Shown here: piece after piece, positions 6,155 through 40,343 of the stretch
How positions within the stretch are numbered: position 1 is the stretch's first letter
Layout: each line of letters opens with the position of its first letter
DNA from: a virus
Strand: one strand, 5' to 3'
DNA length: 40,343 nucleotides
Virus record (IMG/VR): IMGVR_UViG_3300045988_036893
Coordinates: 1 to 40,343 of that record
Program-made: the position numbers and the translations under genes
The notes under the pieces: generated by a model
Databases searched by the model: none
What the model was told of the DNA's origin: nothing
What the model saw: the letters and a program-made list of their open reading frames with translations, nothing else

Positions 6155-7520
6155 TGCCGTTCATTCCTTCTCCCGGCTGGTTCTGTGGCTCGTTAGGTGG
6201 TTGGTTAGTAATTGTACGGTCTAGCTCCTCGGCAGCCTTGCGCCGCATCAGGTCCTCGTACTGGTCTGCGTCGCCGAGAATGGTCAGCAGCTTTTTGGTG
6301 ATGTATTCATCATCGTAGTATTCCGCACCCAGCATCACGGTCTGCGCTTCTTCCTGCTTGTTAATGATTTGATTCCGCGTGTAAGTTGGTTCATCATCAA
6401 GCCCAGCAATTGCCAGAATGCCCTTGATGCAGCGCGAGACCCAGCTTTCAAACTTATCCGTTTTCAAATCCAGCGGCACATAGCTTGCCTTGATGGCTGT
6501 TGCCGTCTGGTTTCCGGCGCTTACGGCAGATGCGTCAAACGCTTGGAAATCCGTGTACAGCTTTTTGGTCAGCATATCAATGGTGGCCTGCGTACCTTGG
6601 AACGGTGCTTCAATGCTCTGCGGTGTGGCTTTTGCGCCCTCGTCACCGTCTGCATGGGCAACGTGGGTGGTTTTAAGTCTCTCAACAAACTTTGCATCGT
6701 CAATTTCATCCATGCCGCCGCAGTTTGTCAGCACCCAATAGATGAGATTGCCCTCATCCACATTGTTTACCATGTTGCTGCTGGCAAGGTCGAGCGCGTC
6801 AACGGTATTTTTCCTGCCGCAAAGTTCGCTTCTTGCTTGTTCGCCGTTCTTCAGCGGGATAATGGGAAATCCGGGATAATTCTCGCCGTCATAAATTTCC
6901 GCGCCGTCAATCTCCGAGTACCGAACTTTCAACTTGTATGGCAGTTTCCCGTTTAAACTACGCACTTCACCGTTTCTCGGCTTGATGTAGTCAGTATAAC
7001 CGTCCATCTCGTACAGAGTTGCCCGCAGCGGTTTGTCAGGATCAATCTGCCAGAACCGGATTCCAGCTTTTAGTGCGCCATCTTCTTCATCGTATAGCGG
7101 CACAAACTGCTCCGGCGAGAACACCTGAATATGGTCAAGATTCCAGAATACGAAAGACTGCCCACCAATCAACGCATGGCGGGCAGCATCCATAATATTT
7201 TCATCAAACGTAGCGCCAAGCGCCTTTTTTGTGGATTCACTGTTAAACGCAACGCCGTTGCCCAGCAGGTAAGAAACTTCCTGGTCTACAACAAATCCAA
7301 AAAACTTGCTGGCAATCTTGTGGTTTGCTGTATACATATCGGGATGCGCTTTCCCTTCAAGGTCGTACACCATTTTTTCATAGCGGTTGATTGTGGGATT
7401 TTCGCCCCAATAGTACAGCTTTGCGTCCAGCATGTCCCGCGTCTTTTTCTGGCCTTTAAAATCGTTGATGGTGTCAAACACAAACCCCATGCGGGAACGT
7501 TCATCTTCACCGACCGCCAC
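6141..7520 (-). CDS. portal protein (SPP1 gp6-like)
   Basis: It is 459 aa and lies between terL and the MuF-like gene. The exact start is uncertain (GTG at 7520 lacks an RBS). Confidence 0.85.
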   Translation of the reverse strand: MAVGEDERSRMGFVFDTINDFKGQKKTRDMLDAKLYYWGENPTINRYEKMVYDLEGKAHPDMYTANHKIASKFFGFVVDQEVSYLLGNGVAFNSESTKKALGATFDENIMDAARHALIGGQSFVFWNLDHIQVFSPEQFVPLYDEEDGALKAGIRFWQIDPDKPLRATLYEMDGYTDYIKPRNGEVRSLNGKLPYKLKVRYSEIDGAEIYDGENYPGFPIIPLKNGEQARSELCGRKNTVDALDLASSNMVNNVDEGNLIYWVLTNCGGMDEIDDAKFVERLKTTHVAHADGDEGAKATPQSIEAPFQGTQATIDMLTKKLYTDFQAFDASAVSAGNQTATAIKASYVPLDLKTDKFESWVSRCIKGILAIAGLDDEPTYTRNQIINKQEEAQTVMLGAEYYDDEYITKKLLTILGDADQYEDLMRRKAAEELDRTITNQPPNEPQNQPGEGMNGNGET

Positions 7521-7554: not shown

Positions 7555-8838
7555 CTATCTGTAAATGCTTTGATACTTCATTGCCGTATTGTCTCCGGCT
7601 TTGTTCGCTGTGCTTTCCATCGCATAACGCACCGCGTCAATGTGATGGTTGTTCAAATCCGGGTACCCTTCCAGCACTTCCCCAGTTTTCGCGTCTCGCT
7701 CGTACTCGTACTCGCTGAATTCCTTTGCTGTGTCCGGGCATCGTTCTGGATCAATGACAATCGCTTCCAGCATTTGCAACCATTTTGTGCCGTATCGAAC
7801 CGATTTCGGCCCTTTACGGGCAGGGAATGTTTTCACGCCGTACTTGTTATAGTCCGCAATGGATTTTGGCTCGGCGCTATCCGCGCAGATTTTGTCCTCG
7901 CGCGTAAGCCCTCTGTCCAGCAGCAGTTGCGCAGTGTCCCTATTGCTGGTTCTACGTCGTGTCAGTTCATCGAAGATGTACAGCGTTCGACGTGCCGCGT
8001 CATAGTGCATAGCATTGTATGCCCACGGGTCAGGGTACCAGCCCCAGTCCACGCCGCGTTTGATACGATCAAAGCTGGCAATCTGTTCATCGGTGATTTT
8101 CTCAATGCGCAGATTCTCAAATACCGCCGTGCCGCTGCCGACAACCTCTCCTAAATACTCATGCCGGTATGCTGTTTCGTTTGTGCGCTGCAAGTATTCT
8201 GCATCGGCCAGGAACCGTTCTCCGAGCCATTCTGCGGGCGTTGTTTTGTAGGTGCTATGATGTATTAGCTTTCCATCGCGGGCTTTCAGTGCGTAGCCGT
8301 TCGCCCAGTTCCGCGCCATTGCGGGCGGGTTGAAGCTCTTGAACGTGATAAACCAGTCACCGCCGCGCAAGCAGGATTGCTCCACATTTCGGATTTGCTC
8401 TTCACCGTCAAACTGGTCAAGCTCTTCAAACCAGCAGATGCCGATATAACCAAACGGCACTTTGATTGACTTTACCTTTCCGGGGTCATCAACGCCGAAA
8501 AAAAGCACCTTTTGTCCAGTTGGCAAATAGGTGCATTCCATAGGGGAGACCGTGCAACGAAAACGATCGTGCAAACCAAGCTCATTAATTGCCCAGACGA
8601 TTTGCGCATAAACGCTTGTGCGCAGTGTGTTGCCGACCTTGCGGAACACTGCTGCGTGGCATTGCGGATGTGCTCTCAGCTGCAAAATGACTTCAACGCC
8701 AATAAAGCTTGACTTTGTGCTGCCACGTCCGCCTTTTGCCACAAACTCTTGAACTTTACCATCCTCAATGTCCCAAAACGGCTTATAAAATGCTGGCGAA
8801 ATAATATCCTTGATATGTTTATTCTCTTGGCACATCAT
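7555..8838 (-). CDS. terL: terminase large subunit (PBSX/Terminase_3 type)
   Basis: It has the Walker A-like motif KGGRGSTKSS, is 427 aa, and overlaps the terS stop. Confidence 0.9.
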   Translation of the reverse strand: MMCQENKHIKDIISPAFYKPFWDIEDGKVQEFVAKGGRGSTKSSFIGVEVILQLRAHPQCHAAVFRKVGNTLRTSVYAQIVWAINELGLHDRFRCTVSPMECTYLPTGQKVLFFGVDDPGKVKSIKVPFGYIGICWFEELDQFDGEEQIRNVEQSCLRGGDWFITFKSFNPPAMARNWANGYALKARDGKLIHHSTYKTTPAEWLGERFLADAEYLQRTNETAYRHEYLGEVVGSGTAVFENLRIEKITDEQIASFDRIKRGVDWGWYPDPWAYNAMHYDAARRTLYIFDELTRRRTSNRDTAQLLLDRGLTREDKICADSAEPKSIADYNKYGVKTFPARKGPKSVRYGTKWLQMLEAIVIDPERCPDTAKEFSEYEYERDAKTGEVLEGYPDLNNHHIDAVRYAMESTANKAGDNTAMKYQSIYR

Positions 8839-9253
8839 AAATAATATTCACCGTTCCCGCGCTCTCTTGCTTCGGCTTGTCATCCCATCCAAAATTTGCC
8901 CGCAAACTGAACTGTGCGCCGCCGGAGCCGTCTTTGTCGTACAATCTTTCTTCGGCGTACTGTTCGCAACGGGCCTTTGCACGCGTAATCGTGTCATTGA
9001 ACTCTGGTTTGTTTTGATAATTCAAAAGCGCCTGCCTTGATGCAAAACCAAGTGCAAGCGCCAATCCTGTCACAGTAGGCGGTTTTTTATCGTCATAGAT
9101 AATATAGCCGTTTTTATTTCGCATCGGTTCTCCGTTATCGTCTAAAAACGGCTTTCCTTTACAGGCTTCAAAGTAGGCATCAATCTTTTCTTGCATTGCC
9201 TTTACGCTTCTGTATTTAGGTGGTGCGCCCCCCGGATTTTTTCTTGATGCCAC
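8819..9253 (-). CDS. terS: terminase small subunit
   Basis: GTG start at 9253 with GAGGTG upstream. The segment PPTVTGLALALGFASRQALLNY is HTH-like, as is typical of small terminases. Confidence 0.8.
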   Translation of the reverse strand: MASRKNPGGAPPKYRSVKAMQEKIDAYFEACKGKPFLDDNGEPMRNKNGYIIYDDKKPPTVTGLALALGFASRQALLNYQNKPEFNDTITRAKARCEQYAEERLYDKDGSGGAQFSLRANFGWDDKPKQESAGTVNIIYDVPRE

Positions 9254-9274
9254 TTTATCACCTCGCTTTACAAC

Positions 9275-9302
9275 ACAAAAAGCCCACACAATTTGTGTAG
9301 GC
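9275..9302 (-). terminator. rho-independent terminator 22 nt upstream of the terS start
   Basis: Minus strand reads GCCTACAC-AAATT-GTGTGGGC followed by TTTTTGTGTTG. Confidence 0.7.
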
Positions 9303-9708
9303 TTATATCCCCCCAAAACCCCTTTGCGCCGGAGGAAAAGCGCGTTCCCGCCCTGTCGGTTTATGCCGTGCCGACCTCACCCGTTGCGGTGAGCAAATCC
9401 GCAACGCTTTTGTACAGTCAGAATTTAACGTGCCTGCTGTCCACACGCTTTTTTCATCCGCTGCATTTATCCCCCGCGTGCGGATTCGCGGTTCTGCTTT
9501 GATGTAATGGGTTTCGGCGATGCGTAACGGCGTCAGTAACAGCGTTCGCACAAGCAGATGCCGGGCAGACTTTTTCAGGCTCTCGAAGTCCCGTTGCGAC
9601 CTGCCATCGCGCCGCGCTCCTTATCGGCTTGCCGCTTTGCTTACAGCGTTCATGTTAGCTATCGCGTTTCCTGCGCCGGGCTTTCACCGGTGGGAGCGAC
9701 CCAGCTTT
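9303..9708 (-). ncRNA. candidate large structured non-coding RNA (about 400 nt body)
   Basis: No credible ORF is present (track ORFs here lack an RBS and are Arg/Cys/Pro-rich). Hairpins are dense, including GAAA loops, a long-range 7-bp helix (9552-9558 with 9493-9499), and mutually exclusive helices at 9376-9406. Confidence 0.4.
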
Positions 9709-9792
9709 CGCCAACAGCAGGATTTGAACCTACAACTAAACCCGCAGCTATGCTGTCATGAGGCCCGGCTTTACCAGTTAAGCTATGTTGGC
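9709..9792 (-). other. tRNA-like element lacking a canonical anticodon arm
   Basis: It has a perfect acceptor stem GCCAACA/TGTTGGC, a D arm GCTT-AACTGGTA-AAGC and a T arm GTAGG-TTCAAAT-CCTGC. The 34 nt between them (containing CTCATGA) form only a 4-bp hairpin. No CCA is encoded. Confidence 0.4.
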
Positions 9793-9894
9793 ATATAAAT
9801 GCGCGGCAGTTGCGCGTGTTGCACGGTGTGCAAGTTATAAGCAAGTTAATATTTAACGTATTAACGCGCTATATTTTAAAACTTGTCACAAACT

Positions 9895-9920
9895 TACACG
9901 CTTTTGCAAATTGCGTGTAA
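9895..9920 (-). promoter_or_regulatory. inverted repeat TTACACGC-N10-GCGTGTAA containing a 15-mer shared with 30086..30100
   Basis: GCAAATTGCGTGTAA (9906-9920) recurs exactly at 30086-30100. Both copies are in AT-rich gaps upstream (minus sense) of late units. Confidence 0.45.
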
Positions 9921-9941
9921 CAGAGGCTTGCCGCGATCTGT

Positions 9942-10259
9942 TCACTCTACAGGCTCGTATGTCTTTTCAAAGATGCCCGGCTTGCACGGATACTGTTCAC
10001 CGCCCACACCAGTGATAATCCAGTCACCGGGAGCAGCGTGCATAACGCCTTCCAGCGTAAAAATATCAAGTTCTTCCTCCGTCTGGTACGCTTCAATGAC
10101 AACCGGCTTTTTCCTAAAATACATAGGCGTCACATCCTGCTTGCTTTTCGGCCCTTCCTCTTTTTTCTTGGCTTCTTCCTCTTCCTCGCGGCGGTGTCTG
10201 GAAATCGTGTTCTGCATATGGATTGCGCCAACGATAGCGCCGACAGGAATATACGGCAT
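9942..10259 (-). CDS. hypothetical protein (105 aa) with conserved small phage C-terminal domain
   Basis: ATG at 10259 follows GGAG. The C-terminus reads [29 protein letters not shown], a motif I recall from small phage proteins. Confidence 0.6.
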
Positions 10260-10375
10260 AGGTCTCCGTCCTTTCTCTCCGACATAAATGTCGGGAACAT
10301 CTAAAAAATAAGGCTCATGCTTTCTGCCTTGCAAGTTTCTTCGGCAAGCCATACCAGCACAAGCCTGTTCAGAAC

Positions 10376-10426
10376 CCGCCACATGGTACGCACTGTTAGT
10401 AGGCGTATGGCGGTTGCCTAACGGGG
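10376..10426 (-). ncRNA. structured RNA motif, copy A (invariant 18-mer inside a covarying outer stem)
   Basis: The outer stem pairs CCGCCA (10376-10381) with TGGCGG (10408-10413). The core CGCACTGTTAGTAGGCGT (10389-10406) is identical to copy B. Confidence 0.5.
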
Positions 10427-10476
10427 AACACAATTGCCGCGTCCGGCCCTGCTACCTTTACCCGTATCATCGGCCT

Positions 10477-10552
10477 TGGTGCTGAATCGAGGACTTGAAC
10501 CCCGAACCCCCTGATTACAAAACAGGTTCTCTACCAGTTGAGATAATCCAGC
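10477..10552 (-). tRNA. tRNA-Thr (anticodon UGU), CCA encoded
   Basis: I folded the cloverleaf by hand: 7-bp acceptor stem (one G-U), D arm TCTC/GAGA, anticodon loop TTTGTAA, T loop TTCAAGT. Length is 76 nt. Confidence 0.8.
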
Positions 10553-10640
10553 ATGTGCGGCTTACCGTTTGCACGGTCATTGTCATCGTTTGTGAGGTAT
10601 GCCGCGCACGCTCACACAGACTAGGAGCTACCTATTCATC

Positions 10641-10714
10641 TGGCACGGGTGGAAGGTCTTGACCCCTCATCTTGCGGTTTTGGAGACCGCAGTTCTGCAT
10701 TGAACTACACCCGC
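10641..10714 (-). tRNA. tRNA-Trp (anticodon CCA), CCA encoded, non-canonical D and T loops
   Basis: The acceptor is GCGGGTG/CACCCGT (G1-U72), the anticodon arm is GCGGT-CTCCAAA-ACCGC, and the T loop GTCAAGA is atypical. Length is 74 nt. Confidence 0.6.
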
Positions 10715-19839: not shown

Positions 19840-20084
19840 TCTGCAGCCTCCTTGAAATACAGTCCGCACAGTGGATTCAGGGCCAGCAGGGCGGCGAGAG
19901 TGGCGGGGATGTTGAGAGAACCGAGCGCCGCCAGCAGCAGCACCAAATCTGCGGTGATTGCCAGCTTGACGGCGGCGCGGGTAAGTGATAGAATACAGTT
20001 AGAGCTTTTTGCGATGCTCTGTTCGTTCTGCCGTCTCTGTGTGCCAGCACAGGGGCGGCGTTTTTTTGTTGCTGTCGCCATCAT
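19836..20084 (-). CDS. small membrane protein (82 aa)
   Basis: ATG at 20084 follows GGGAGGAAG. It has two hydrophobic segments. Confidence 0.5.
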   Translation of the reverse strand: MMATATKKRRPCAGTQRRQNEQSIAKSSNCILSLTRAAVKLAITADLVLLLAALGSLNIPATLAALLALNPLCGLYFKEAAE

Positions 20085-20102
20085 TCTTTTACTTCCTCCC
20101 AT

Positions 20103-20675
20103 TCAAAGCGGCCCTTGCCACTGGCCCAGACCGCGCAGCGTGCCGTAGTCGAAGCACTCCCGGACAACGTCCTCAAGTTTCGGGTCGAGACAGGTGACTT
20201 CAAATTCAATGGTAGAGCCTGCCGGGACGGTTTCCGATTTGGCGATGCTAACGCGCTCACCCATTGGGGTCTGTGCGCGCAGGGGGCGCTCACAGAAGCC
20301 CATCTTTAGGCCGTGAAGGTTGTATGGAATCTCACGCGGGGAAACGAAAATCAGGCCGTCAATGGCTTTCTTGTAGGCTTTCAACGCGGCACAGTGCTTG
20401 CCACCCGGATAGCCTGCCTTACCGGCAGTGGCAAGGGCCTTGCAGCTGTCCTTGAACATGCCCTTGATCTGATAATCGTAGATGAACGGCGTTCCGTTGG
20501 CAGTCTTGGGAAAAATGGTCGTTCTTTCCTCTGCAGCCTGCGCTTTGATGTTGTCGACTTCCTGCGCAGTCAGGTCATCGGTGGGGGCCTTGCTGGCGAT
20601 GTAAGCGGCCAGCAACTCCTCATTGCTGGGGCTGGAACCTAAAACCTCTTCGGTTAAAGTGATACGGATTTTCAT
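20103..20675 (-). CDS. hypothetical early protein (190 aa), family not recognised
   Basis: It has an AAAGGA RBS and is the first gene after the repeat array. The C-terminus reads YGTLRGLGQWQGPL. Confidence 0.65.
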   Translation of the reverse strand: MKIRITLTEEVLGSSPSNEELLAAYIASKAPTDDLTAQEVDNIKAQAAEERTTIFPKTANGTPFIYDYQIKGMFKDSCKALATAGKAGYPGGKHCAALKAYKKAIDGLIFVSPREIPYNLHGLKMGFCERPLRAQTPMGERVSIAKSETVPAGSTIEFEVTCLDPKLEDVVRECFDYGTLRGLGQWQGPL

Positions 20676-20729
20676 TTGTGGTCGTCCTTTCTAATTGATA
20701 AATTACGGTTGCTCTTCAAGTATTTGCTT

Positions 20730-20951
20730 TGCCACTGCTATGCCTCGCACATCGTTGCCCTGTCAAAGCCATTCTACGCAAAGCCTCCGCGTTGCCATTC
20801 ATTGCCGTTGCTGTGCTCTGCGTAGCTATGCCTTTGCGGCTCTATACATATCTTTGCCATTGCAAAACAATGCTAAACGGTGCTTTTCCAATGCAAATCC
20901 ATTCCTTTCCAAGCTGCGCATCGCCATTGCCGTTCATAGCTCTGCCATTGC
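20730..20951. repeat. array of at least 6 same-orientation TGCCATTGC-like 9-mers in a 320-bp non-coding gap
   Basis: Exact copies lie at 20855-20863 and 20943-20951. Variants lie at 20730-20738, 20793-20801, 20802-20811 and 20922-20930. Confidence 0.8.
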
Positions 20952-20997
20952 ATGGGCAAGCATGGCTTTTCCTTTGCTCCGCCTTTCCAAGCAATTC

Positions 20998-21294
20998 CTA
21001 CGCTTTTTTGAGGAGGTCAGCGGCAAGCTGCAGCGCGTCGGCCAGCTGTTCGCGGTCAGATTTGGGCTTGACGGGGGTTGACCGGCGGACGGCGGCGGCG
21101 GGGAAGTAGGCGGCAAAGTCGTCCAGGGAGATGTCCAGCGCGGCACATACTTTGCAAACCTCCGGCCACGTCCACGGAATTTTACCGGTGTATTTTCTCC
21201 CAACAGAATTTCCACTCAATTTCAGTTCTTCTGCCAGTTTTTCCCGGTTGTAGCCTTTACTTTTGAGAAGCGCTTTAAAAGCAATGTTTGTCAT
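20998..21294 (-). CDS. XRE/Cro-type HTH transcriptional regulator (98 aa)
   Basis: ATG at 21294 lies 9 nt after AAGGAG. The HTH segment reads FKALLKSKGYNREKLAEELKLSGNSVGRKYTG. Confidence 0.7.
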   Translation of the reverse strand: MTNIAFKALLKSKGYNREKLAEELKLSGNSVGRKYTGKIPWTWPEVCKVCAALDISLDDFAAYFPAAAVRRSTPVKPKSDREQLADALQLAADLLKKA

Positions 21295-21307
21295 GTTCAT
21301 CATCTCC

Positions 21308-21336
21308 TTGTAACACATATCAAGAAGTTGTATACT
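21308..21336 (+). promoter_or_regulatory. promoter TTGTAA-17 nt-TATACT for the plus-strand 88-aa gene
   Basis: The hexamers are at 21308-21313 and 21331-21336. The promoter overlaps the 5' end of the divergent XRE gene. Confidence 0.5.
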
Positions 21337-21357
21337 GTGCGAAAGGGGGAAAATAGT

Positions 21358-21624
21358 ATGGATTTAAAAATTCCAGATTTTACAAAAGACATTGACTTTG
21401 AAAGCACTCCGCTGAAAAATATTGAAAAAGCATCAACGGTAACTGCCGTACAAGCCAAACGCCTTGCAGAGTTAGCGGAGCGCCGTGCCCAAAAAGCTGA
21501 GCAGGATGCAAAAGATGCCGATGCCAGTGCAAAGCGTGCAAACGCTATTGCCATTGTATCGGTAATAATCGCTGCAATTTCTCTTTTCGGCGAAGCGCTC
21601 GGCCTTTTCCCGCTCTCTTTTTAA
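21358..21624 (+). CDS. tail-anchored membrane protein (88 aa), expressed in the integrase direction
   Basis: The RBS is GAAAGGGGGA. A coiled charged region is followed by the C-terminal TM AIAIVSVIIAAISLFGEALGLF. Confidence 0.65.
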   Translation: MDLKIPDFTKDIDFESTPLKNIEKASTVTAVQAKRLAELAERRAQKAEQDAKDADASAKRANAIAIVSVIIAAISLFGEALGLFPLSF

Positions 21625-21720
21625 CCAGTGTTCAAAGTAGAACGTAAAAACCAGATTGCATATCGCACCGCCCAGCACAGCGCCCTTGATAGCAATTGTG
21701 ACAAACAGTTTAGGTGTCAT
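21472..21720 (-). CDS. possible small membrane protein (82 aa) overlapping the convergent plus gene
   Basis: A strong AAAGGAG lies 7 nt before ATG 21720, with an N-terminal TM. The last roughly 50 codons are antisense to 21358..21624 and look artefactual. Confidence 0.35.
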   Translation of the reverse strand: MTPKLFVTIAIKGAVLGGAICNLVFTFYFEHWLKREREKAERFAEKRNCSDYYRYNGNSVCTLCTGIGIFCILLSFLGTALR

Positions 21721-21734
21721 TGGGTTGCTCCTTT

Positions 21735-22473
21735 TTATAAAGCATTCAAGCACAGCAGTCGGAACGTCTCACGGCCTTTAGGCGTGATAAGTGTCTGTGT
21801 GCCGCTCCACTTGGTTTTCTCGTTAAAGCACTCTTTAACCTCAAACAATCCGTTGTTTTTATCGGCGTATGGCATCAGCTTTGCTTTTTTATCTCTGTAG
21901 ATGTATTTCTTTTCCATCAAAAAAGAGATAAACTTTTTCTCTTCAACTCCAAGTTGTTTTGCCGTCTCCCGAAAGCTGGTCAGCAAATTACGGTCTACAA
22001 GTTCGTCAAAATATTCAGCTTTAGGCTGCATAATAGCATTCTGAACTGTAAGTTCCGAAATCCGAGCATCCCGTTCTGCAAGCGTTTTGTTGGCAACAAG
22101 CAGTGCTTTAGCCATAAGCTCAGATGGCGTAAGCTGTTCCTGCCCGGCGATGTAACCACCGTTTTTGCGGATACTGGGCAAGACTTCACTGGTGACCCAT
22201 TTGCGGAAAGGCTTTGCCTCTGGCTTGTCACTACGCAGGATGACGTTGTACAGGCCGGATTCGTTGATAACGGTAGTCTCCTGCTGGCGGCCCATGCTGT
22301 CGGTGAGGTCAGTCAGGATTACCTCATCCGCATCAAGCCGCTGCGCCGTCATTTTGTGGTTGGAGATCCCCAGCACCGCGCACACGTCTTTGAACGGCGA
22401 ACCACGGTTCGCCGTTCAACTCAACCGTGCGTACATCGTTGTTTTCGTACTTAAAAATCTGAATGTTGTTCAT
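21735..22473 (-). pseudogene. antirepressor (BRO-N + KilAC/ANT domains) interrupted by a 1-nt frame disruption at about 22392
   Basis: ATG 22473 (AAGGAG RBS) gives MNNIQIFKYENNDVRTVELNGEPWFAV and then stops after 46 codons. The +1 frame continues KDVCAVLGISNH... as track ORF 21735..22385. Confidence 0.75.
22390..22419. repeat. perfect 14+2+14 palindrome TTGAACGGCGAACC-AC-GGTTCGCCGTTCAA inside the antirepressor gene
   Basis: Read directly. The frame-breaking C (22392 on the minus strand) is the base that extends the perfect arms from 11 to 14 bp. Confidence 0.9.
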
Positions 22474-22477
22474 TCGC

Positions 22478-22672
22478 TCACTCCTTTCTTTCTGCGATCA
22501 GTTCACTTACAGCCGCCTCCATCTTCTTCTGAATGTCAGGCGGTTTGCGCTTACTGTTCAGAATCAAACAGATGTAAGGCTTGCCGTAACCGAGCTTTTT
22601 TGCTACGTCTTCATAAGAAATGTCGTTATTGTGCATCTTCCCAATCAAACGACCAGTCCAAGCTTCGGGCAT
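22478..22672 (-). CDS. small HTH regulator (64 aa), first gene of the leftward early operon (cro-like position)
   Basis: It has a strong GGGAGGTGA RBS. The segment ISYEDVAKKLGYGKPYICLILNSKRKP is HTH-like. Confidence 0.6.
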   Translation of the reverse strand: MPEAWTGRLIGKMHNNDISYEDVAKKLGYGKPYICLILNSKRKPPDIQKKMEAAVSELIAERKE

Positions 22673-22710
22673 TTTTTCACCTCCCTAGTAAAAATTAGAA
22701 GTAAACAAAA

Positions 22711-22739
22711 TTGACTGCCGCGACACAATATGCTATAAT
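22711..22739 (+). promoter_or_regulatory. near-consensus promoter TTGACT-17 nt-TGcTATAAT
   Basis: The hexamers are at 22711-22716 and 22734-22739, with an extended -10 TG at 22731-22732. Confidence 0.75.
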
Positions 22740-22745
22740 CTGAAT

Positions 22746-23040
22746 TGCCAGAGTAAGGCAGAAAGGAAGGTGGTCGTCCCTTGACCCAACTTTTGAGTAT
22801 GCCAGTTCCAGACTAAAGAAATTGCGTAACGCGCTATGGCTTAAACGGCTGCCCCAAAGCTGCCAAAGGTTACGGCAAGTCCACAGAATTGCAAGTTCGT
22901 TTTGCAAGCAGCGGATGCGCATTGCACAAAGGACCGTGTACTTGCTCGCTCACATTGAGCGGTTCCGTTGCTGCAAACTTGTTCTGGTAAAAAACTTTGG
23001 GAAAAATCCGTCTGCTAACGAACAGCAGGCGGATTTTTTT
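22746..23040 (+). ncRNA. candidate non-coding RNA of about 295 nt (promoter-to-terminator unit without a credible ORF)
   Basis: A strong promoter and a strong terminator bracket it. Inside are only an 11-codon ORF and an RBS-less ORF that reads through the terminator. Internal helices include TGCC/GGCA, TTGCAA/TTGCAA and CGCTCA-CAT-TGAGCG. Confidence 0.55.
23002..23040. terminator. bidirectional rho-independent terminator
   Basis: A 10-bp stem TCCGTCTGCT/AGCAGGCGGA (one G-U) with a 7-nt loop is flanked by A5 on the left and T7 on the right. Confidence 0.8.
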
Positions 23041-23062
23041 GCTGTCGCGGCAGTGTAAGGTG

Positions 23063-23091
23063 TTGCAAATGTTTACAAAACGTGCTATATT
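23063..23091 (+). promoter_or_regulatory. promoter TTGCAA-17 nt-TGcTATATT, face to face with the minus-strand promoter
   Basis: The hexamers are at 23063-23068 and 23086-23091, with an extended -10 TG. Confidence 0.6.
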
Positions 23092-23179
23092 GTAGTTGTC
23101 AGATACGTAATAGCATTTAGTTCAGGCATATAGCTGTCTGGGCTTGGTGTTTTGTTGCGTTTGTTGCCTTACAAGTGCC

Positions 23180-23208
23180 ATTATACCGTAAACATACGCA
23201 ACAGTCAA
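23180..23208 (-). promoter_or_regulatory. consensus promoter TTGACT-17 nt-TATAAT on the minus strand (candidate early lytic promoter)
   Basis: The reverse complement of 23180-23208 reads TTGACTgttgcgtatgtttacggTATAAT. Confidence 0.75.
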
Positions 23209-23274
23209 GCGGTTTTGTTGCTTTTGTTTACGTTTGTATGATTGCACAAATAATTAGGTGAAAAATTGTATGTT

Positions 23275-23499
23275 CTATGACAACTTTATTCGATTGTGCG
23301 CAAAAGAAAATATATCCCCCAGTGCGGCAATTACACTGTCCGCAATAGCTCTGTCCAGCTCTAACGGCAGATTTTGCGCATCGTAAAAGTTCATGCCAGA
23401 GACTTCAATCAGTTTCAGCATTTTTTCAACGACTTCATCCTTTTTCTGCCTGTACTCGCTGTCATCGCACTTATTGTAGACATCAATTCTGTTGCGCAT
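23275..23499 (-). CDS. hypothetical protein (74 aa), AT-rich island
   Basis: A strong AAGGAG lies 7 nt before the ATG at 23499. Confidence 0.6.
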   Translation of the reverse strand: MRNRIDVYNKCDDSEYRQKKDEVVEKMLKLIEVSGMNFYDAQNLPLELDRAIADSVIAALGDIFSFAHNRIKLS

Positions 23500-23635
23500 T
23501 GCTTGTCTCCTTTATAACCTCATTACAAATTGCAATAGCATCTTTTAGCGGGATTTCTCGCAAAAGCTGCTTTGCCTGCTCTCTTAAACTAAGTATCGTA
23601 CTTTTTTGCGTGATTGTCAACGGTTCTTTTTTCAT
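23483..23635 (-). CDS. hypothetical protein (50 aa), AT-rich island
   Basis: ATG at 23635 follows GGGGGA. The longer track ORF would overlap the divergent gene. Confidence 0.45.
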   Translation of the reverse strand: MKKEPLTITQKSTILSLREQAKQLLREIPLKDAIAICNEVIKETSNAQQN

Positions 23636-23671
23636 TTCAGATTCCCCCAAATTAAATAAGGTTGTGATACT

Positions 23672-24577
23672 ATGGGCTTTTTTGACTTTTTGAAGCCGAA
23701 ACAAAAAGTAAATGTTTCCATAACTACACATGAGCCGACTAAAGATGAAATTGCAAAGCAGTATGCTGGTTACTGCAAAGCACAAACAGAAAAGCGGCAT
23801 GCTGAACAGGAAGAGCGAGCAAACGATAATTTTCTAGCGCTGTCTGCTGATGATCTCGCAGACAAAAACGGTCTAAAGCCAACAGAAATTTTAATGCTTT
23901 CTTATTTAGAGAAATATTCCAGCGGAAAGCCTGTTGCAAAGTTCTGGCATTATGATTATGGCGTTGATGATGTTTGGCCTATTATTAAAAAGCTGGAATC
24001 AATGGGATTTGCCGAAAACGGAAAATTGACCGAAAAGGGAAAAGCAGAAATAAAAGCCAACGAATACGTTTATTTTTATCACAGAAAATCCTATGCTCAT
24101 TGGGCTTTTACTTTGCCGGAGTTTTGTCGCGCCGTAAACGCTCGAAGAGACATCCCATATCGAGATTTAATATGGGGGCAATATAATAAACTATATATGG
24201 AAGCATTTTCATCTCCAAAAAGATGCCGTGATCTGCGCTATTTAATGTATGAATTTTTAGAGGATGAGAAGAAGTACAAAAATGCTTTTTCCATGTTGCT
24301 TGAAATTCCGTTTTACGACATGAATTGCGGTCGCCCGTTTGTATCGCCTAGTGTTATGCTGGAACTAAAAAAGGCGCAAAAGAAAGCATCCCTTACAGAA
24401 GAAGAAGTCTTTAATATGGCAAAAGGAAGCTATAGCAGAATCTTTGTTGATAATCCTACCATTCCCGCAATGGATGCCGCAGGCGTTGTCACGTCTTACA
24501 TTTTTGGAAAAGACGGGCTTGCGCAGAGGGTTCTAAAATCTTACAAAATAGATTGCAATAGATTGTTTTCCGCATAA
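23672..24577 (+). CDS. orphan 301-aa protein in AT-rich island next to the integrase (family not recognised)
   Basis: It is a long clean ORF, visibly AT-richer than the genome, on the same strand as the integrase. Confidence 0.7.
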   Translation: MGFFDFLKPKQKVNVSITTHEPTKDEIAKQYAGYCKAQTEKRHAEQEERANDNFLALSADDLADKNGLKPTEILMLSYLEKYSSGKPVAKFWHYDYGVDDVWPIIKKLESMGFAENGKLTEKGKAEIKANEYVYFYHRKSYAHWAFTLPEFCRAVNARRDIPYRDLIWGQYNKLYMEAFSSPKRCRDLRYLMYEFLEDEKKYKNAFSMLLEIPFYDMNCGRPFVSPSVMLELKKAQKKASLTEEEVFNMAKGSYSRIFVDNPTIPAMDAAGVVTSYIFGKDGLAQRVLKSYKIDCNRLFSA

Positions 24578-24870
24578 ACAGTTTATTGTATTTTACACAA
24601 CTCACAGTTGTATTTCAACACTTTCACAAAAATACTCATTTGTCAAGTCTTAGCTGTCCTATATATTGGATTTCCAGCACTTGACAACAACTTTTTTTGT
24701 CGCTTCCGCCCATGATGGGACGGCGGCTTGTTTACCAGCCTTTCCATTTGTCTGCCCCCTTGACCAAAATTGTACTGCATCCACAATATGCTTTTTGTCA
24801 AAGGCTGTAAATGACCAATATCGACAACTTATTGATATTTGCATTGGGTCTGTTGGTTTTATCCGCTACT

Positions 24871-24912
24871 AAACAAAAAAGCCCCTGCCGGTGTTCGTAC
24901 CACCGACAAGGG
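24871..24912 (-). terminator. minus-strand terminator upstream of the integrase start
   Basis: Minus strand reads GCCCTTGTCGGTG-7 nt-CACCGGCAGGGGC (13 bp, two G-U) followed by TTTTTTGTTT. On the plus strand the same positions are C-A mismatches and no T-run follows. Confidence 0.55.
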
Positions 24913-24976
24913 CAAAGAGCCGTCAACATAAAAAGTTGACGGCATTATTATAACACACAAAAAAAGGAGCCGCAAT

Positions 24977-26053
24977 ATGAAAAGAACAAATACAGCGAGA
25001 TGGATTGAATCTGCCCAGCGCTGGCAGATAAACGTGCAGAAAGACGGCGTGCGCAAAACCTTTACCAGCGCCAAGCCGGGGCGCACAGGCCAGCGGGAAG
25101 CCAACAAAAAAGCAGATGACTGGCTAGAAAACGGCTTGCAAACGCGCGGAAAGACGGTCGAGAGCGCATATAAAGAATACCTTGCGAGAGAATCAAAAAT
25201 ATCGGGCATAAGCAATTTTAGACCAAAGGAAAGCCGCTGGCGCATATGGATTCAGCCGGAAATTGGGCACCGGCGGTTGGAATCGTTGACGCAGCAGCAA
25301 GTGCAAACAGTTTTAGACAACGCCAAAGCCGCTGGAAAAAGCCGTAAAACGCTTCAAAATATCTATGGAGACATCACATCGTTTTTTCGGTTTGCACGCA
25401 ATTCAGGCTATACAACGTTTGTACCAGATAACTTGAACATTCCCGCTGGAACTCCAAAGCCGCAAAAGAAAATATTGCAGCCAGACGATTTAGCAATTTT
25501 ATTGTCAAGCGACAAAACCAAGTACATGGGCAAGGAAGCCAAAGACCCTTATATCAACGCATACCGCCTTGCTGTTCTGACCGGGATTCGACCGGGTGAG
25601 TTGATTGGTATGCAGTGGGAAGATGTGAAAGAAAACAGAATTTTTCTGCGGCGTGCGATCAACATTTATGGAGAAAAAACAACAGGTAAAAATGACAATG
25701 CGGTTAGAGCAATTGAATTGTCCGACATGGCTAAAAGCGTAATAGATGCGCAACGCGAACTTACAAAAAATGGTAAAAGTGTTTTTGGCATCTCAGATGA
25801 GCACTTGCTCTATAAATGGTGGAGAAAGTATTTCGATTACAACGGAATAAATTATGTTTCTCTTTACGAGCTTCGACACACGTTTGTATCGATTGCAAGC
25901 GCACTCCCGGAAGGGCAGCTCAAACAGATTGTTGGGCACAGCAAAAATATGGATACATTTGGTGTGTACGGCCACGCAGTCAACGGCCAGGCCGAAAAAA
26001 TAGCCTCTGCGATTGACGAAACATTTAAGGACGTGCTAAAAAGTACACACTAA
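24977..26053 (+). CDS. int: tyrosine recombinase / phage integrase
   Basis: It has an AAGGAG RBS. The C-terminal catalytic pattern is YELRHTFVS ... VGHSKNMDTFGVYGH. Confidence 0.9.
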   Translation: MKRTNTARWIESAQRWQINVQKDGVRKTFTSAKPGRTGQREANKKADDWLENGLQTRGKTVESAYKEYLARESKISGISNFRPKESRWRIWIQPEIGHRRLESLTQQQVQTVLDNAKAAGKSRKTLQNIYGDITSFFRFARNSGYTTFVPDNLNIPAGTPKPQKKILQPDDLAILLSSDKTKYMGKEAKDPYINAYRLAVLTGIRPGELIGMQWEDVKENRIFLRRAINIYGEKTTGKNDNAVRAIELSDMAKSVIDAQRELTKNGKSVFGISDEHLLYKWWRKYFDYNGINYVSLYELRHTFVSIASALPEGQLKQIVGHSKNMDTFGVYGHAVNGQAEKIASAIDETFKDVLKSTH

Positions 26054-26064
26054 AAGTACACACT
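26040..26064 (+). repeat. two direct AAAGTACACACT repeats (candidate arm-type integrase sites, P arm)
   Basis: The copies at 26040-26051 and 26053-26064 overlap the int stop codon. Confidence 0.6.
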
Positions 26065-26160
26065 TTTTTGGAAAATATATGGTTTGCCACAAAAATGTAG
26101 AACGATAACGTCCCGTATCATCGCCATTTTTTGCTTGTTGAATCGATATGATTCTGTATC

Positions 26161-26188
26161 TCCGTGGGTTCGACTCCCATCAGCCGCT
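26161..26188 (+). other. attP core candidate: 3' part of a tRNA gene (T arm + 3' acceptor strand)
   Basis: The sequence GTGGG-TTCGACT-CCCAT-CAGCCGC-T has no matching 5' acceptor strand upstream, so it is a partial tRNA, as is typical of tRNA-targeting integrases. Confidence 0.6.
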
Positions 26189-26195
26189 CTTTTAA

Positions 26196-26236
26196 AAACA
26201 CCGTAGATTCGTCGAAATCTACGGTGTTTCCTTTTT
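26196..26236 (+). terminator. strong terminator directly after the tRNA fragment
   Basis: A perfect 14-bp stem AAACACCGTAGATT/AATCTACGGTGTTT with a 6-nt loop is followed by CCTTTTT. Confidence 0.75.
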
Positions 26237-26237
26237 C

Positions 26238-26260
26238 AAGTACACACTTTAGTACACACT
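26238..26260 (+). repeat. two more direct AGTACACACT repeats (candidate P' arm sites)
   Basis: The copies at 26239-26248 and 26251-26260 have the same orientation as the P-arm pair. Confidence 0.6.
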
Positions 26261-26263
26261 TGC

Positions 26264-26401
26264 CTATTTTCTCTGCAAGCTGTGTACCAAATCATTATAC
26301 ACTTCAGGCCGTGCTTCTTTCAGCGCATCCATAAACTCATCCAGCACACGCCACACTCGCCCGTCATCAGCCTTGCTTACAATCTCCAAAAATTCACTCA
26401 T
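26264..26401 (-). CDS. cargo ORF 9 (45 aa), paralogous to the C-terminal part of ORF 8
   Basis: It is not in the track. MSEFLEIVSKADDGRVWRVLDEFMDALKEARPEVYNDL aligns with SDFLQAVSNVDTTAALNVLDELMSALYVTNPKVYNNV. It has an 8-nt overlap with the upstream ORF. Confidence 0.45.
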   Translation of the reverse strand: MSEFLEIVSKADDGRVWRVLDEFMDALKEARPEVYNDLVHSLQRK

Positions 26402-26570
26402 CCTGTAAACGCTCCAATTTCCGCATTACGTTATTATAAACTTTAGGGTTTGTTACATACAAGGCCGACATAAGCTCATCCAGCACGTTCAGCGCTGCTG
26501 TGGTGTCTACATTTGACACAGCCTGCAAAAAGTCACTGCCGCTTCGTAGTAACGCGCAGGCTCTTGCCAT
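26394..26570 (-). CDS. cargo ORF 8b (58 aa; probably the displaced C-terminal half of ORF 8)
   Basis: It lies in the -1 frame relative to 26507..26716 and overlaps it by 64 nt. There is no RBS at its own ATG. Confidence 0.4.
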   Translation of the reverse strand: MARACALLRSGSDFLQAVSNVDTTAALNVLDELMSALYVTNPKVYNNVMRKLERLQDE

Positions 26571-26716
26571 TTTGCTTTTTGTGGGGCAGGGGATACATCT
26601 GCAAGTTGCTGATTTTTCACAACATACAGCGCCGCCAAATTTTTAACTCTGGTCATGGTAAGTTCGCTGTTTTCGATTTCGGCTATAGCGCCGTCAATCT
26701 CTCGCACGTCCACCAT
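26507..26716 (-). CDS. cargo ORF 8a (69 aa)
   Basis: ATG at 26716 follows GGAGGTG. Confidence 0.55.
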   Translation of the reverse strand: MVDVREIDGAIAEIENSELTMTRVKNLAALYVVKNQQLADVSPAPQKAKWQEPARYYEAAVTFCRLCQM

Positions 26717-26730
26717 AGCCGCCACCTCCG

Positions 26731-27126
26731 TCAAGTGTTTTTCAGCTCGTCGATGCAATGCTGGATAGTCTCGCGGTCGTATCCATCAACGTTTCGTAGC
26801 ATGTCTTCCAGCTTTCGCATCATGCTGTCTCGCGCATCGTCTCGGCTGTAATGGCCACGCACATAATGAGAACCGCGCCGAGCATAGCTACTGCCGCGTC
26901 CATAATTGCCGCGCATGTTGGCGTTCCAATCACCATCCCGGCTGTAATCTTCATCGCGGCTGTAACCGTTTTCTTCCAGCATTGTAATTTTGTCGATGTT
27001 TTTAATGGTGTCGGTCAGCTTGTGAACAGTTTCCAAGTCGCCAGCAGACATTTCGCCTTTTTTGCCGATTTCGTCCAGCTCTGCGCACAGCATGTCCTTC
27101 AAATCGTACATAACTTTCATACTCAT
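26731..27126 (-). CDS. cargo ORF 7 (131 aa): helical ends flanking a Y/S/R/G/D-rich low-complexity core
   Basis: It has a strong AAAGGAG RBS. The core reads GYSRDEDYSRDGDWNANMRGNYGRGSSYARRGSHYVRGHYSRDD. Confidence 0.7.
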   Translation of the reverse strand: MSMKVMYDLKDMLCAELDEIGKKGEMSAGDLETVHKLTDTIKNIDKITMLEENGYSRDEDYSRDGDWNANMRGNYGRGSSYARRGSHYVRGHYSRDDARDSMMRKLEDMLRNVDGYDRETIQHCIDELKNT

Positions 27127-37987: not shown

Positions 37988-40343
37988 ATCGCCCACCTCG
38001 CCCGCTGAAAATACGCTGCTGTACTTGCTGCCAGTTCAACCGGCGTCTGCTTTGCCGCGTAAATATTTTGCGTCAGGGTAAAACCGTTGCTGCTGCCCTT
38101 ACCGCGTCTGTAACTGTCCGCCTCATCGGCTGTCAGCACCATCTCGCCGCGATGCAGATTTGCAACGTAGTTGTTATAAGGGACATAATCCATGCCGCCT
38201 GCGTGGCTGCCGTCAGACCCCGTATTGTTTTTCACATCACTTGCATTGATGACAAAAATGCTCTTGATGCCATCCCACAAGCCCTGCACAAAGCTGACAA
38301 GACCACCCCAAACAGCCGCAATGCCGCCCTTGATGCCCTCTACAACGTTTTGGCCGACCGTAGAGAAAAAGTCAAACGCACCTTCAAAGATGCCCTGAAT
38401 CGACTCCCACGCGCTCTGAAAGTCACCGGACAACACAGCGTCAATCGTAGAGAACACGCCAGTAATCAAATTAAACACAGTCTGGAAAAAGCTTACCGCA
38501 ACATTCCAGATGCTTTGAATGATGATCCACGCGCCCTGAAAGAATCCGCTGATAATCGGTGCAAAAGGTGCAAAGATAACCACAATTGCCTGAAAGATAG
38601 CCTGAAAGAATGCGCTTGCCCATGCCCATACAGTCTGTACAAGGCTCCATGCAGCGCTGAACGCTTCACCGATGCTCTGTATAACCGGGGTCAAATCTGT
38701 AATGACCTGCGTAACGACCTGCCCGATAACCTGCATAGCCGCTTCAACATAGGGCTGCACCCATGCTACAAGCTCTTCGATTTTTGCCCAGATGTTTTCA
38801 ATAACGCCATTTACAGAATTTCTGAAATCTTCGTTCTTCGCATACAGCACAGCCAAAATACCAACCAGTGCGCCAATTGCAACCACAACCAGTGTAATTG
38901 GGTTTGCTGCCAAAACCGCATTAAAAGCGGCTTGCGCTTTTGCCGCTGCCGCCTGTGCCAACGTCATAAGAGAAATCTTCCCTGTAAGCAATCCGGCAAG
39001 AACTTCGGATGCCTTTAATGTGCCATTGAGCGCGCCCTGTGCAATTTCCGTGTCAGAAAGCCCCATGCTGAACAAAGAAACAGCAACTTTGGCTTCGTCA
39101 AAGGCCGTTGCCATTTTTTGGATTTTCGTCCCGATTTGCCAGCCTTTTACAGCTGCACCAACCGTCACAAGTGCTGGTGCGATTTCTTCAATTACAGGCA
39201 CGACTTCTTCAGCCGCTGTTTTAACATTATCAAAAATGTCAAGCAAGAACGAAAAGTCAGAGTTTTCAATCGCGCTTGTCAGCCCGGAAATAATTGCATC
39301 GCCAAAAAAAGAAAACACATCAGCAACAATGGGCTGCAATTCGCTTGCTACGCTGCTTAACCCGCCGAAAAGTGTCTGCAAGCCCTCTTCAATAGTCGGT
39401 TCAAGCTCCATAATCACACCGCTCACATAAGGCGCAAGCTGTGTGACCAGTTCGCTCAAACCATCAATCAAAGTAGGCACAATTTCTTTGATGCGCGGTA
39501 TAATGTTGTTTCCGGCAGTAATAACGCTGTCAACAAGGTTGTCCACCAAGGCTTGAAAGTTTTGCTCCGGGTCTGCAATTCCGGTCAAAAGATTTTCCCA
39601 AGCGCTCTTCATCGACGCTGTACTGCCTTGAATTGTAGTTGCAGCTTCCTTGCTGGTTGTTCCCATGATGCCCATGTTGGCCTGCACGACATGAATCGCT
39701 TGTACAATGTTCGCATAGGACATACTGTTGGAATCGACCGTAACACCAAGCTCTTTCTGCGTGTCCGTCATGGCAGCGGCTTCTTTGATAAGCCGCTTCA
39801 TTTCAGCTTGCGTGCCGCCGTAGCCAAGCTTTAGGTTGTCAAGCATTGTGTAGTTCTGCTTCGCGAAGCCGTTATATGCGTCTTGGATGGACGAAATATT
39901 CGTACCCATTTTGTTCGCATTATCGGACATATCCGAAATTGCAGTATTTGCCATTTCAGCGGCTTTTTCTGTGTTACCGCCCAAACTTGAAACCAGTGCC
40001 GCCGCAAACGATGTGGATGTTTCCATGTAATCATTTGCTGAAAGACCCACATTTTTGTATGCGTCTTTTGCGTAGTTCTCTATGATTCCCGCGCTATCTT
40101 TGTACAGCGTTTCCACGCCGCCGACAAGCTGCTCATACTCTCCGTAGCTATCCAGAGATGCCTTGCCGATTGAAATTGCCGCGCCAGTTGCCATTTTGCC
40201 TATGTTAACAAATCCGTTTGCAACATTGCGCAGACCGTCTGTAACAACGTTTCCTAGCACGGTGCCGGAAAAAACGTCCATCAGAGAGGAAGCCCCGCCC
40301 TTTGCCTTTTCTACGCCTTTTTCGTATTCGCTTGTGTTTAGGC
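37984..40343 (-). CDS. tape measure protein (body; the start lies at position 86 across the circular junction)
   Basis: It is long, Ala/Gly-rich and helical with hydrophobic segments, upstream of Dit. The frame is open to the window end and continuous with 55..86. Confidence 0.9.
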   Translation of the reverse strand, partial: LNTSEYEKGVEKAKGGASSLMDVFSGTVLGNVVTDGLRNVANGFVNIGKMATGAAISIGKASLDSYGEYEQLVGGVETLYKDSAGIIENYAKDAYKNVGLSANDYMETSTSFAAALVSSLGGNTEKAAEMANTAISDMSDNANKMGTNISSIQDAYNGFAKQNYTMLDNLKLGYGGTQAEMKRLIKEAAAMTDTQKELGVTVDSNSMSYANIVQAIHVVQANMGIMGTTSKEAATTIQGSTASMKSAWENLLTGIADPEQNFQALVDNLVDSVITAGNNIIPRIKEIVPTLIDGLSELVTQLAPYVSGVIMELEPTIEEGLQTLFGGLSSVASELQPIVADVFSFFGDAIISGLTSAIENSDFSFLLDIFDNVKTAAEEVVPVIEEIAPALVTVGAAVKGWQIGTKIQKMATAFDEAKVAVSLFSMGLSDTEIAQGALNGTLKASEVLAGLLTGKISLMTLAQAAAAKAQAAFNAVLAANPITLVVVAIGALVGILAVLYAKNEDFRNSVNGVIENIWAKIEELVAWVQPYVEAAMQVIGQVVTQVITDLTPVIQSIGEAFSAAWSLVQTVWAWASAFFQAIFQAIVVIFAPFAPIISGFFQGAWIIIQSIWNVAVSFFQTVFNLITGVFSTIDAVLSGDFQSAWESIQGIFEGAFDFFSTVGQNVVEGIKGGIAAVWGGLVSFVQGLWDGIKSIFVINASDVKNNTGSDGSHAGGMDYVPYNNYVANLHRGEMVLTADEADSYRRGKGSSNGFTLTQNIYAAKQTPVELAASTAAYFQRARWAI
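40289..40343. repeat. second copy of the 55-nt terminal repeat
   Basis: Identical to 1..55. Confidence 0.95.

Follow-up and report, generated by a model that had tools for sequence, protein, structure and literature searches.

FuFi-1 RNA in the lysis/lysogeny switch of an uncultured phage, probably of gut Clostridia, with a truncated repressor gene

The IMG/VR virus record IMGVR_UViG_3300045988_036893 (40,343 nt, the whole stretch analysed, hereafter the window) is the genome of an uncultured phage, probably of gut Clostridia, with an ordinary protein-based lysis/lysogeny switch. We detected in this switch a plus-strand unit, 22746-23040, that is almost certainly the gene for FuFi-1 RNA (Rfam RF02986). 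An earlier reading made without database searches (the sequence-only reading) had proposed a discrete promoter-to-terminator RNA unit here and had suggested scanning it against Rfam; cmscan bore out the unit and identified it as FuFi-1, with a core at 22824-23038 (+) scoring 117.4 bits against a gathering score of 59.6 (E = 4.4e-25) and covering model positions 1-175 of 175. The full transcript is predicted to begin at the start site and to close with the T-run (22746-23040, +), the fold z-score of the unit is -3.4, and the window copy has a 40-nt insertion in one hairpin relative to the Rfam model. The window RNA is a member of an already catalogued family, orphan as to function. The best explanation of the whole, which we consider fairly probable, is that FuFi-1 is part of a protein switch, that the repressor gene was deleted in this genome, and that the RNA would serve as a brake.

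FuFi-1 was described by Weinberg et al. 2017 as one of four highly conserved motifs ending in a terminator, with properties suggesting a sophisticated biochemical function; the motif was rarely found in 5′ untranslated regions (UTRs), self-cleavage was not seen and no compelling protein association was detected (PMC5737381). The literature searched holds no mention of FuFi-1 beyond this paper, which assigns no function.

The FuFi-1 promoter, TTGACT-17-TGcTATAAT at 22711-22739 (+), is TG-extended and matches the consensus at 11/12 positions. A sigma-A-type promoter with a 17-nt spacer was found at the same position, at a fixed distance from the 5′ module of the RNA, in 13/13 lineages scanned (TG-extended in 11). 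The promoter scan gave 17 promoter-like sites in the 6-kb region, versus 8.6 +/- 3.0 in shuffles. The intrinsic terminator (23002-23040) was detected by the Rfam match, the hairpin scan and the terminator scan, and consists of a 15-bp stem (arms 23002-23016 and 23024-23038, 93% complementary) between A5 and T7. The sequence-only reading had claimed that this hairpin can terminate in both directions, and the scan indeed flags it as terminator-like on the minus strand too, the upstream A5 tract being responsible. With its own promoter in 13/13 lineages and a terminator before the next gene, FuFi-1 has the form of a stand-alone unit. The plus strand is the functional strand, since its helices contain many G-U pairs and few mismatches.

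Relatives were collected by two pattern scans of IMG/VR, yielding 122 loci in 17 sequence clusters; the first pattern (16 specified bases) returned mainly chance matches, with the RNA in 8/119 loci, and the second pattern succeeded. FuFi-1 was detected in 14/17 cluster representatives (113-144 bits), while L221, L173 and L220 were without a match at the gathering score and were left out. The window's own cluster comprises 16 loci. A same-strand gene lies 240-1100 nt downstream of the RNA in 14/14 lineages, its protein matching HTH_3 in 13/14 and Peptidase_S24 in 4/14, so that a conventional repressor stands beside FuFi-1 in all 14 lineages. The repressor is followed in L172, L201 and L211 by HExxH-type open reading frames (ORFs; AEELGH, AHELGH), which, read by eye, are ImmA-like. 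A small helix-turn-helix (HTH) gene on the opposite strand is found left of the RNA in the window, L143, L151 and L172; ten lineages carry a small HTH gene directly right of the RNA, with the stop codon abutting the RNA terminator.

A strong leftward promoter (10-12 of 12) is located 70-290 nt past the RNA terminator in 10/13 lineages, the leftward early genes start about 50 nt from the -35 of the RNA, and no leftward promoter of at least 10/12 was found between the RNA and the leftward genes in the 13 lineages scanned. Across the family, then, the RNA gene lies within the early lytic unit in antisense orientation. This agrees with the earlier proposal that the minus-strand promoter reads antisense through the RNA to the HTH and antirepressor genes, a layout that recurs in the 13 lineages.

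The same layout bears on the explanation of FuFi-1 as a cis-acting leader or attenuator of the repressor gene, in which read-through of the terminator would set the repressor level. In every case the RNA precedes the repressor on the same strand, and in four lineages, including the window, the interval between the two holds nothing but promoters; the public FuFi-1 motif description reportedly mentions XRE-type genes downstream. Yet most lineages have a separate promoter for the repressor, ten have a convergent cro-like gene between RNA and repressor, and the terminator, with 7 U in the window, is a strong one. The rarity of the motif in 5′ UTRs (PMC5737381) speaks in the same direction, and we consider an attenuator role improbable.

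The repressor gene of the window was very probably truncated after codon 20, with the loss of most of an ordinary CI-type gene. The truncated gene occupies 23270-23386 (+), where codons 1-20 (to 23329) match the L052 repressor and the rest of the ORF is the antisense of a 74-aa gene. The homology to L052, L044 and L101 (97-99% identity) spans the RNA and the facing promoters and ends exactly at 23329. A full Cro/CI-type repressor is encoded immediately downstream of the RNA in L052, L044, L101 and L140 (97-99% identical); the ORF that begins at the window's ATG (23270) continues in L052, L044 and L101 to a 116-aa protein (MFYDNFIRLCAKENISPSAAAEEMGF...), of which the L052 version matches HTH_26 and HTH_3 (Pfam). 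Full-length repressors are present in L001 and L075 as well, and the stub also matches the L185 repressor (E = 5e-4). The window retains the promoter, the ribosome-binding site (RBS) and 20 codons, after which its sequence is the antisense of a 79-aa gene in L001; the junction alignment places the crossover within an imperfect shared stretch of about 18 nt, a microhomology at which the gene recombined with the module of another phage. The junction 34-mer was not found in IMG/VR or in the Joint Genome Institute (JGI) metagenomes. That the imperfect 18-nt match caused a false join in a k=55 assembly is unlikely.

The six-frame hidden Markov model (HMM) scan of the whole window detected no S24 domain, no intact CI, and only three HTH matches: the 64-aa protein, a 106-aa HTH_26 protein on the lytic strand, and the repressor stub. 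The sequence-only reading had reported no CI/S24-type gene anywhere in the genome, which holds for an intact gene and fails for the CI-type 5′ stub at 23270-23329. Its placement of the RNA in the slot of a CI gene does not hold, given the stub in the window and the full repressor immediately downstream in the 97-99% identical relatives.

These results decide the fate of the related proposal that the RNA and promoter interference form an immunity system replacing the protein repressor, like the P4 CI RNA. The window does lack an intact repressor, and its RNA gene and all three promoters are intact; against this stand the stub and the recombination junction, the conventional protein repressor paired with FuFi-1 in 14/14 lineages, and the allele-specific operators around the lytic promoter. 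The full repressor of the relatives, together with the stub and junction in the window, explains the missing CI by deletion and leaves RNA-only immunity unsupported, and we give it hardly any credence.

The antirepressor gene of the window is also damaged. This Bro-N/ANT gene (21735-22473, -) is split by a 1-nt insertion near 22393-22395, the frameshift being defined relative to L044 and L207; L052 is without the antirepressor gene, as the segment corresponding to window 21283-22464 is absent there. With the repressor cut after codon 20 and the antirepressor frameshifted, the window must be seen as a variant that has lost its repressor rather than as a phage using RNA in place of CI. On the minus strand across the junction, a 74-aa ORF (23275-23499) takes its last 15-18 codons from the antisense of the repressor stub, so its C-terminus differs from that of the 79-aa homologue in L001.

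The scan recovered all three promoters of the sequence-only reading where it had placed them. Besides the FuFi-1 promoter, these are the promoter of the CI-type repressor, TTGCAA-17-TGcTATATT at 23063-23091 (+; 9/12, TG-extended), with a leader of about 170 nt, and the early lytic promoter, TTGACT-17-TATAAT at 23180-23208 (-; 11/12), which faces it. All three immunity alleles retain the repressor promoter, ahead of full-length repressors. About 75 bp lie between the predicted starts of the two facing promoters, as the earlier reading had put it. Its face-to-face arrangement is real and recurs in L151 and L172; in the remaining lineages the promoters stand back-to-back. About 25 nt past the predicted start of the repressor promoter, at 23119-23144 (+), is a terminator-like hairpin whose tail is rich in U. 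The other immunity alleles also have a hairpin at this position, of another sequence, and the element may serve as an attenuator within the leader of the repressor.

The heptamer GTAAACA had been proposed as the operator of one of the small HTH proteins, with four copies each touching a promoter. The four positions, within 531 bp, are correct, and the heptamer is not enriched in the window (7 versus 5.4 expected). The true element is the 16-mer TGTTGC-N3-TGTTTAC, and the heptamer at 22701 is a half-match only, located in the invariant part and outside the operator set. Exact copies of the 16-mer lie over the -35 of the repressor promoter (TGTTGCAAATGTTTAC, 23061-23076, +), in the spacer of the lytic promoter (23188-23203, -) and just upstream of the lytic -35 (23216-23231, +); a degenerate copy with 2 mismatches lies just downstream of the lytic start site (23153-23168, +). 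Other sites in the window never have fewer than 2 mismatches.

Three immunity alleles were distinguished in the window's cluster, which differ from one another in the repressor N-terminus and in the repeats surrounding the leftward promoter (TGTTGC-N3-TGTTTAC; GTAACTTTAGTAAC; GCAAACTTTTTAAACC), while the RNA, the repressor promoter and the flanks are constant. The 64-aa HTH protein (22478-22672, -) is encoded by the first gene downstream of the antisense FuFi-1 stretch and matches a cro-like protein alignment (E = 5e-17) and phrog_1468; it is identical to the window's in L207 (allele 3) and L075 (allele 2). The repeats thus swap with the repressor allele while the 64-aa HTH stays unchanged, which points to the 16-bp repeats as putative operators of the CI-type repressor and not of the small HTH protein.

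FuFi-1 extends beyond its Rfam model. A conserved 5′ extension of 78 nt (window 22746-22823) is outside the model and is present in 107/123 loci. Its 5′ module consists, in order, of a 5′-terminal hairpin, GAAAGGAG, a gap of 7-10 nt, a TTG/ATG/GTG codon, and then ACC.AACUUUUGA.UUGCC(C)UGUUCCCUUA. The hairpin (UGCC-loop-GGCA; window 22746-22760, +) is found in all representatives, with a compensatory GCC/GGC to CCC/GGG change in L185, L151, L211 and L201. The start-region-like element (22762-22816, +) is conserved in the family and comprises the Shine-Dalgarno (SD)-like AAAGGAAGGTGG at 22762-22773 and an 11-codon TTG ORF at 22781-22816 (MTQLLSMPVPD), contrary to the statement of the sequence-only reading that the unit contains no RBS-led ORF. 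The first codon across loci is TTG, ATG or GTG, never CTG. The start-like codon looks selected, since L153 has lost the TTG and carries an in-frame ATG 3 nt upstream in its place.

These features could be taken as the mark of an mRNA for a small peptide (MTQLL...), with the structured part as its 3′ UTR, and the conserved SD-like element 7-10 nt from the codon and the compensating ATG of L153 would agree with it. A small conserved protein at 22781-22816 was nevertheless rejected: the ORF varies from 11 to 36 codons and lacks a conserved stop codon, the bases after a frame-shifting 1-nt insertion remain conserved, and the substitutions show no third-codon-position bias, falling mostly at first and second positions. 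Codons 10-11, moreover, are one strand of a covarying RNA helix. A peptide mRNA is thus very unlikely, and the conserved small protein that the earlier reading had named as evidence against its RNA unit did not turn up at 22781-22816.

The helix in question joins the 5′ extension to the core. RNAalifold of eight long-form loci pairs CC-N-N after the 5′ element with N-N-GG before GGUAAA; in the window, CCAGA at 22808-22812 (+) pairs with UCUGG at 22983-22987 (+), just before the hallmark GGUAAA...UUUGGG element, the 3′ strand being drawn unpaired in Rfam. Six versions of the helix were observed: CCCU/AGGG, CCUU/AAGG, the U-G intermediate CCUU/AGGG, CCAG/CUGG (window), CCCA/UGGG and CCUGAAA/UUUCAGG. 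The covariation score is 0.170, versus 0.083 +/- 0.011 in shuffles (0/500) and at most 0.086 with the partners slid. The proposed second half of the long-range helix (UGUU/AACA) contains uncompensated mismatches and is unsupported.

Eight lineages, the window not among them, have in addition a middle domain whose helices covary well and which is about 230 nt long; the loci for this larger-than-Rfam FuFi-1 are L151, L210, L155, L170, L172, L153, L168 and L201. An Rfam search at permissive threshold gave no family for the 5′ or the middle domain. Both parts appear to be new and the Rfam family model appears incomplete at its 5′ end; to our knowledge, neither the link of FuFi-1 to a lysis/lysogeny switch nor the longer architecture has been described.

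The FuFi-1 unit is bracketed by a perfect 12-nt inverted repeat, with the left arm ACTGCCGCGACA in the -35/spacer of the FuFi-1 promoter (22714-22725) and the right arm TGTCGCGGCAGT directly after the terminator (23043-23054), the latter invariant in the three immunity alleles. Similarly placed repeats of 11-12, 13-18 and 9(14) nt, against a maximum of 9 in shuffles, were found in three other lineages of the same gene order (arms at 6316-6326 / 6669-6679 in L143, 3733-3750 / 4143-4160 in L151 and 8102-8115 / 8520-8533 in L172), so that the repeat is found in the four lineages with the small HTH gene left of the RNA. The two cluster-3 versions of the repeat co-vary. An invertible promoter segment (inverton) was rejected, with 0 of about 100 loci having the segment inverted relative to its flanks. 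Both arms are contained only in the leftward lytic transcript, where the repeat could fold into a stem with the antisense stretch as its loop; alternatively, the arms could serve as two protein-binding sites.

It is plausible that FuFi-1 works beside CI on the lysogeny side, through antisense action or interference. It would be a lysogeny-side transcript, co-oriented with the repressor, whose gene lies antisense within the initial few hundred bases of the early lytic unit, and it would add a second brake where transcription from the lytic promoter continues into the HTH, antirepressor and early genes. Such a brake would rest on a strong promoter firing convergently, on a terminator with at least partial activity in reverse, and on a stable structured RNA that may pair with the lytic leader; the 5′ hairpin and the ribosome-binding-like element would stabilise the RNA, by analogy with Bacillus 5′ stabilisers. 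We offer this mechanism tentatively, as a possibility that falls short of being probable.

Several observations weigh against the brake. Antisense action in cis alone fails to explain a conserved sequence and complex fold amid unrelated flanking genes. The reverse U-tract is good in the window, L170 and L211 and poor in L210 and L155, so bidirectional termination is not universal. In ten lineages the lytic promoter is separated from the RNA by the cro-like gene, and the overlap would be with the 3′ end of its mRNA and not with a leader. Furthermore, transcription of FuFi-1 is predicted from sequence, and the truncation junction is a single observation, seen in no other contig.

Since the conserved fold suggests more than antisense action, a serious rival is that FuFi-1 acts in trans through this fold, binding a conserved host or phage protein, an RNA or a small ligand, its antisense position then reflecting merely a lysogeny-expressed accessory gene. 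The core nucleotides are highly conserved, the architecture has many helices including the closing helix and the covarying middle domain of about 230 nt, all neighbouring genes differ around a conserved RNA, and the discoverers list it among motifs of likely sophisticated function (PMC5737381). On the other side, no partner is known, neither a compelling protein association nor self-cleavage having been seen (PMC5737381), and a role in trans only would not need the strict orientation and position found in 14/14 lineages. The duplex scan of translation start regions and leaders in the window, a crude method, reached -45 kcal/mol at best, shuffled controls going down to -51 kcal/mol, and no target stood out. 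We regard action in trans as possible, though doubtful.

Returning to the switch as a whole, FuFi-1 might be a third, RNA component of a CI/Cro-type switch in temperate gut Clostridia phages, a large structured RNA of lysogenic-side origin that either gates read-through of the early lytic operon or uses a conserved partner, its full form of 300-400 nt including the ribosome-binding-like 5′ module and the closing long-range helix absent from the Rfam model; this generalisation is speculative and we lean towards doubting it.

The distribution of FuFi-1 fits this host group. The core matches among species-representative genomes have Clostridia-type titles, plus one metagenome-assembled genome (MAG) titled 'bacterium', and five were confirmed by cmscan, in agreement, on these record titles, with a Firmicutes/Fusobacteria distribution. 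By cmscan, FuFi-1 is present in the cultured strains Blautia celeris NSJ-34 and Ruminococcoides intestinihominis CLA-AA-H171, in each of which the RNA has an S24 repressor and a cro-like gene as neighbours.

The window has an exact direct terminal repeat of 55 nt (1-55 / 40289-40343) and is thus a complete circular assembly of about 40.3 kb. Its large terminase has 50-61% identity to those of uncultured human faecal phages and 46-49% to those of Blautia/Clostridium phages. Megablast of window 20000-27000 and blastn of the long-form FuFi-1 gave no matches to GenBank phages, and the species-representative genomes gave no nucleotide match to the window.

Other RNA elements were noted along the way. 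A full-length D12-methyl RNA (Rfam RF02950; 89.3 bits versus 57) lies at 9343-9406 (-), just upstream of a 165-aa ORF (8819-9316). Three tRNA genes are clustered at 9708-10714 (-): Thr(TGT), Trp(CCA) and a tRNA-His call by ARAGORN that is unusual (anticodon ATG, 86 nt). Two terminator-like hairpins stand back-to-back at 24881-24943, between a 301-aa gene and the integrase gene. The related phage contigs contain a skipping-rope RNA (L221, 12830-12907, +; 72.5 bits) and a type II hammerhead ribozyme (L211, 9879-9947, -; 44.2 bits).

FuFi-1 is one of the few orphan bacterial RNAs that were flagged by their discoverers as likely to be biochemically sophisticated. Our analysis provides it with a testable setting, inside a lysis/lysogeny switch, on the repressor strand and antisense to the lytic operon in every lineage examined, and the two cultured strains make this setting concrete. 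For annotation, the lesson is that an apparently repressor-less temperate phage can be a mere deletion variant. The remaining interest is in an orphan structured RNA placed consistently in a phage switch and in its unannotated 5′ and middle parts.

In comparison with the Rfam FuFi-1 family, the window RNA reaches about twice the gathering score over the whole covariance model, has the 3′ terminator and the UGCA...GGUAAA.AA.UUUGG hallmark, probably belongs to Firmicutes hosts and stands alone rather than in a 5′ UTR; it differs from the model by the hairpin insertion (40 nt) and by the conserved 5′ extension (78 nt). In Bacillus, the 5′ stabilisers of mRNAs such as hbs combine a strong SD, which holds a ribosome and blocks RNase J1, with 5′/3′ pairing (PMC5737220). 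The 5′-terminal hairpin of FuFi-1, its strong SD-like element near the 5′ end and its 5′-to-3′ helix may resemble what is described there, by analogy alone, as FuFi-1 is not known as an mRNA.

P22 sar and lambda OOP are small antisense RNAs opposing lytic or antirepressor transcripts, sar overlapping the ant ribosome-binding site and OOP the 3′ end of cII. FuFi-1 is like them a short terminator-ended RNA from a constitutive-looking promoter, opposed to a transcript that leads toward antirepressor and early genes. Unlike them, it overlaps no coding sequence or RBS in the window, where the nearest opposite-strand start is at 22672 and the ant start at 22473, and it is far larger and has a conserved, complex fold.

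The P4 CI RNA and the c4 RNA of P1/P7 are processed from longer transcripts and act via short complementary target sites, and in P4 the RNA is the only immunity factor. FuFi-1 shares with them a place in the immunity region near an antirepressor operon. Unlike them, it has a protein repressor beside it as a rule, with the stub (23270-23329) in the window and full repressors in 14/14 lineages. As to complementary targets, the crude duplex scan picked out none beyond the shuffled controls.

Phages P2 and 186 have face-to-face lytic and lysogenic promoters. The repressors of the FuFi-1 phages gave generic Cro/CI-type HTH matches in Pfam (HTH_3, HTH_26 and Phage_CI_repr), and other FuFi-1 lineages differ from P2/186 in having lambda-like back-to-back promoters. 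The switch architecture of P2/186 was found in the window, and in L151 and L172: the repressor and lytic promoters converge, with starts about 75 bp apart in the window, repressor sites flank the lytic promoter, and the plus-strand promoter drives the repressor in the relatives.

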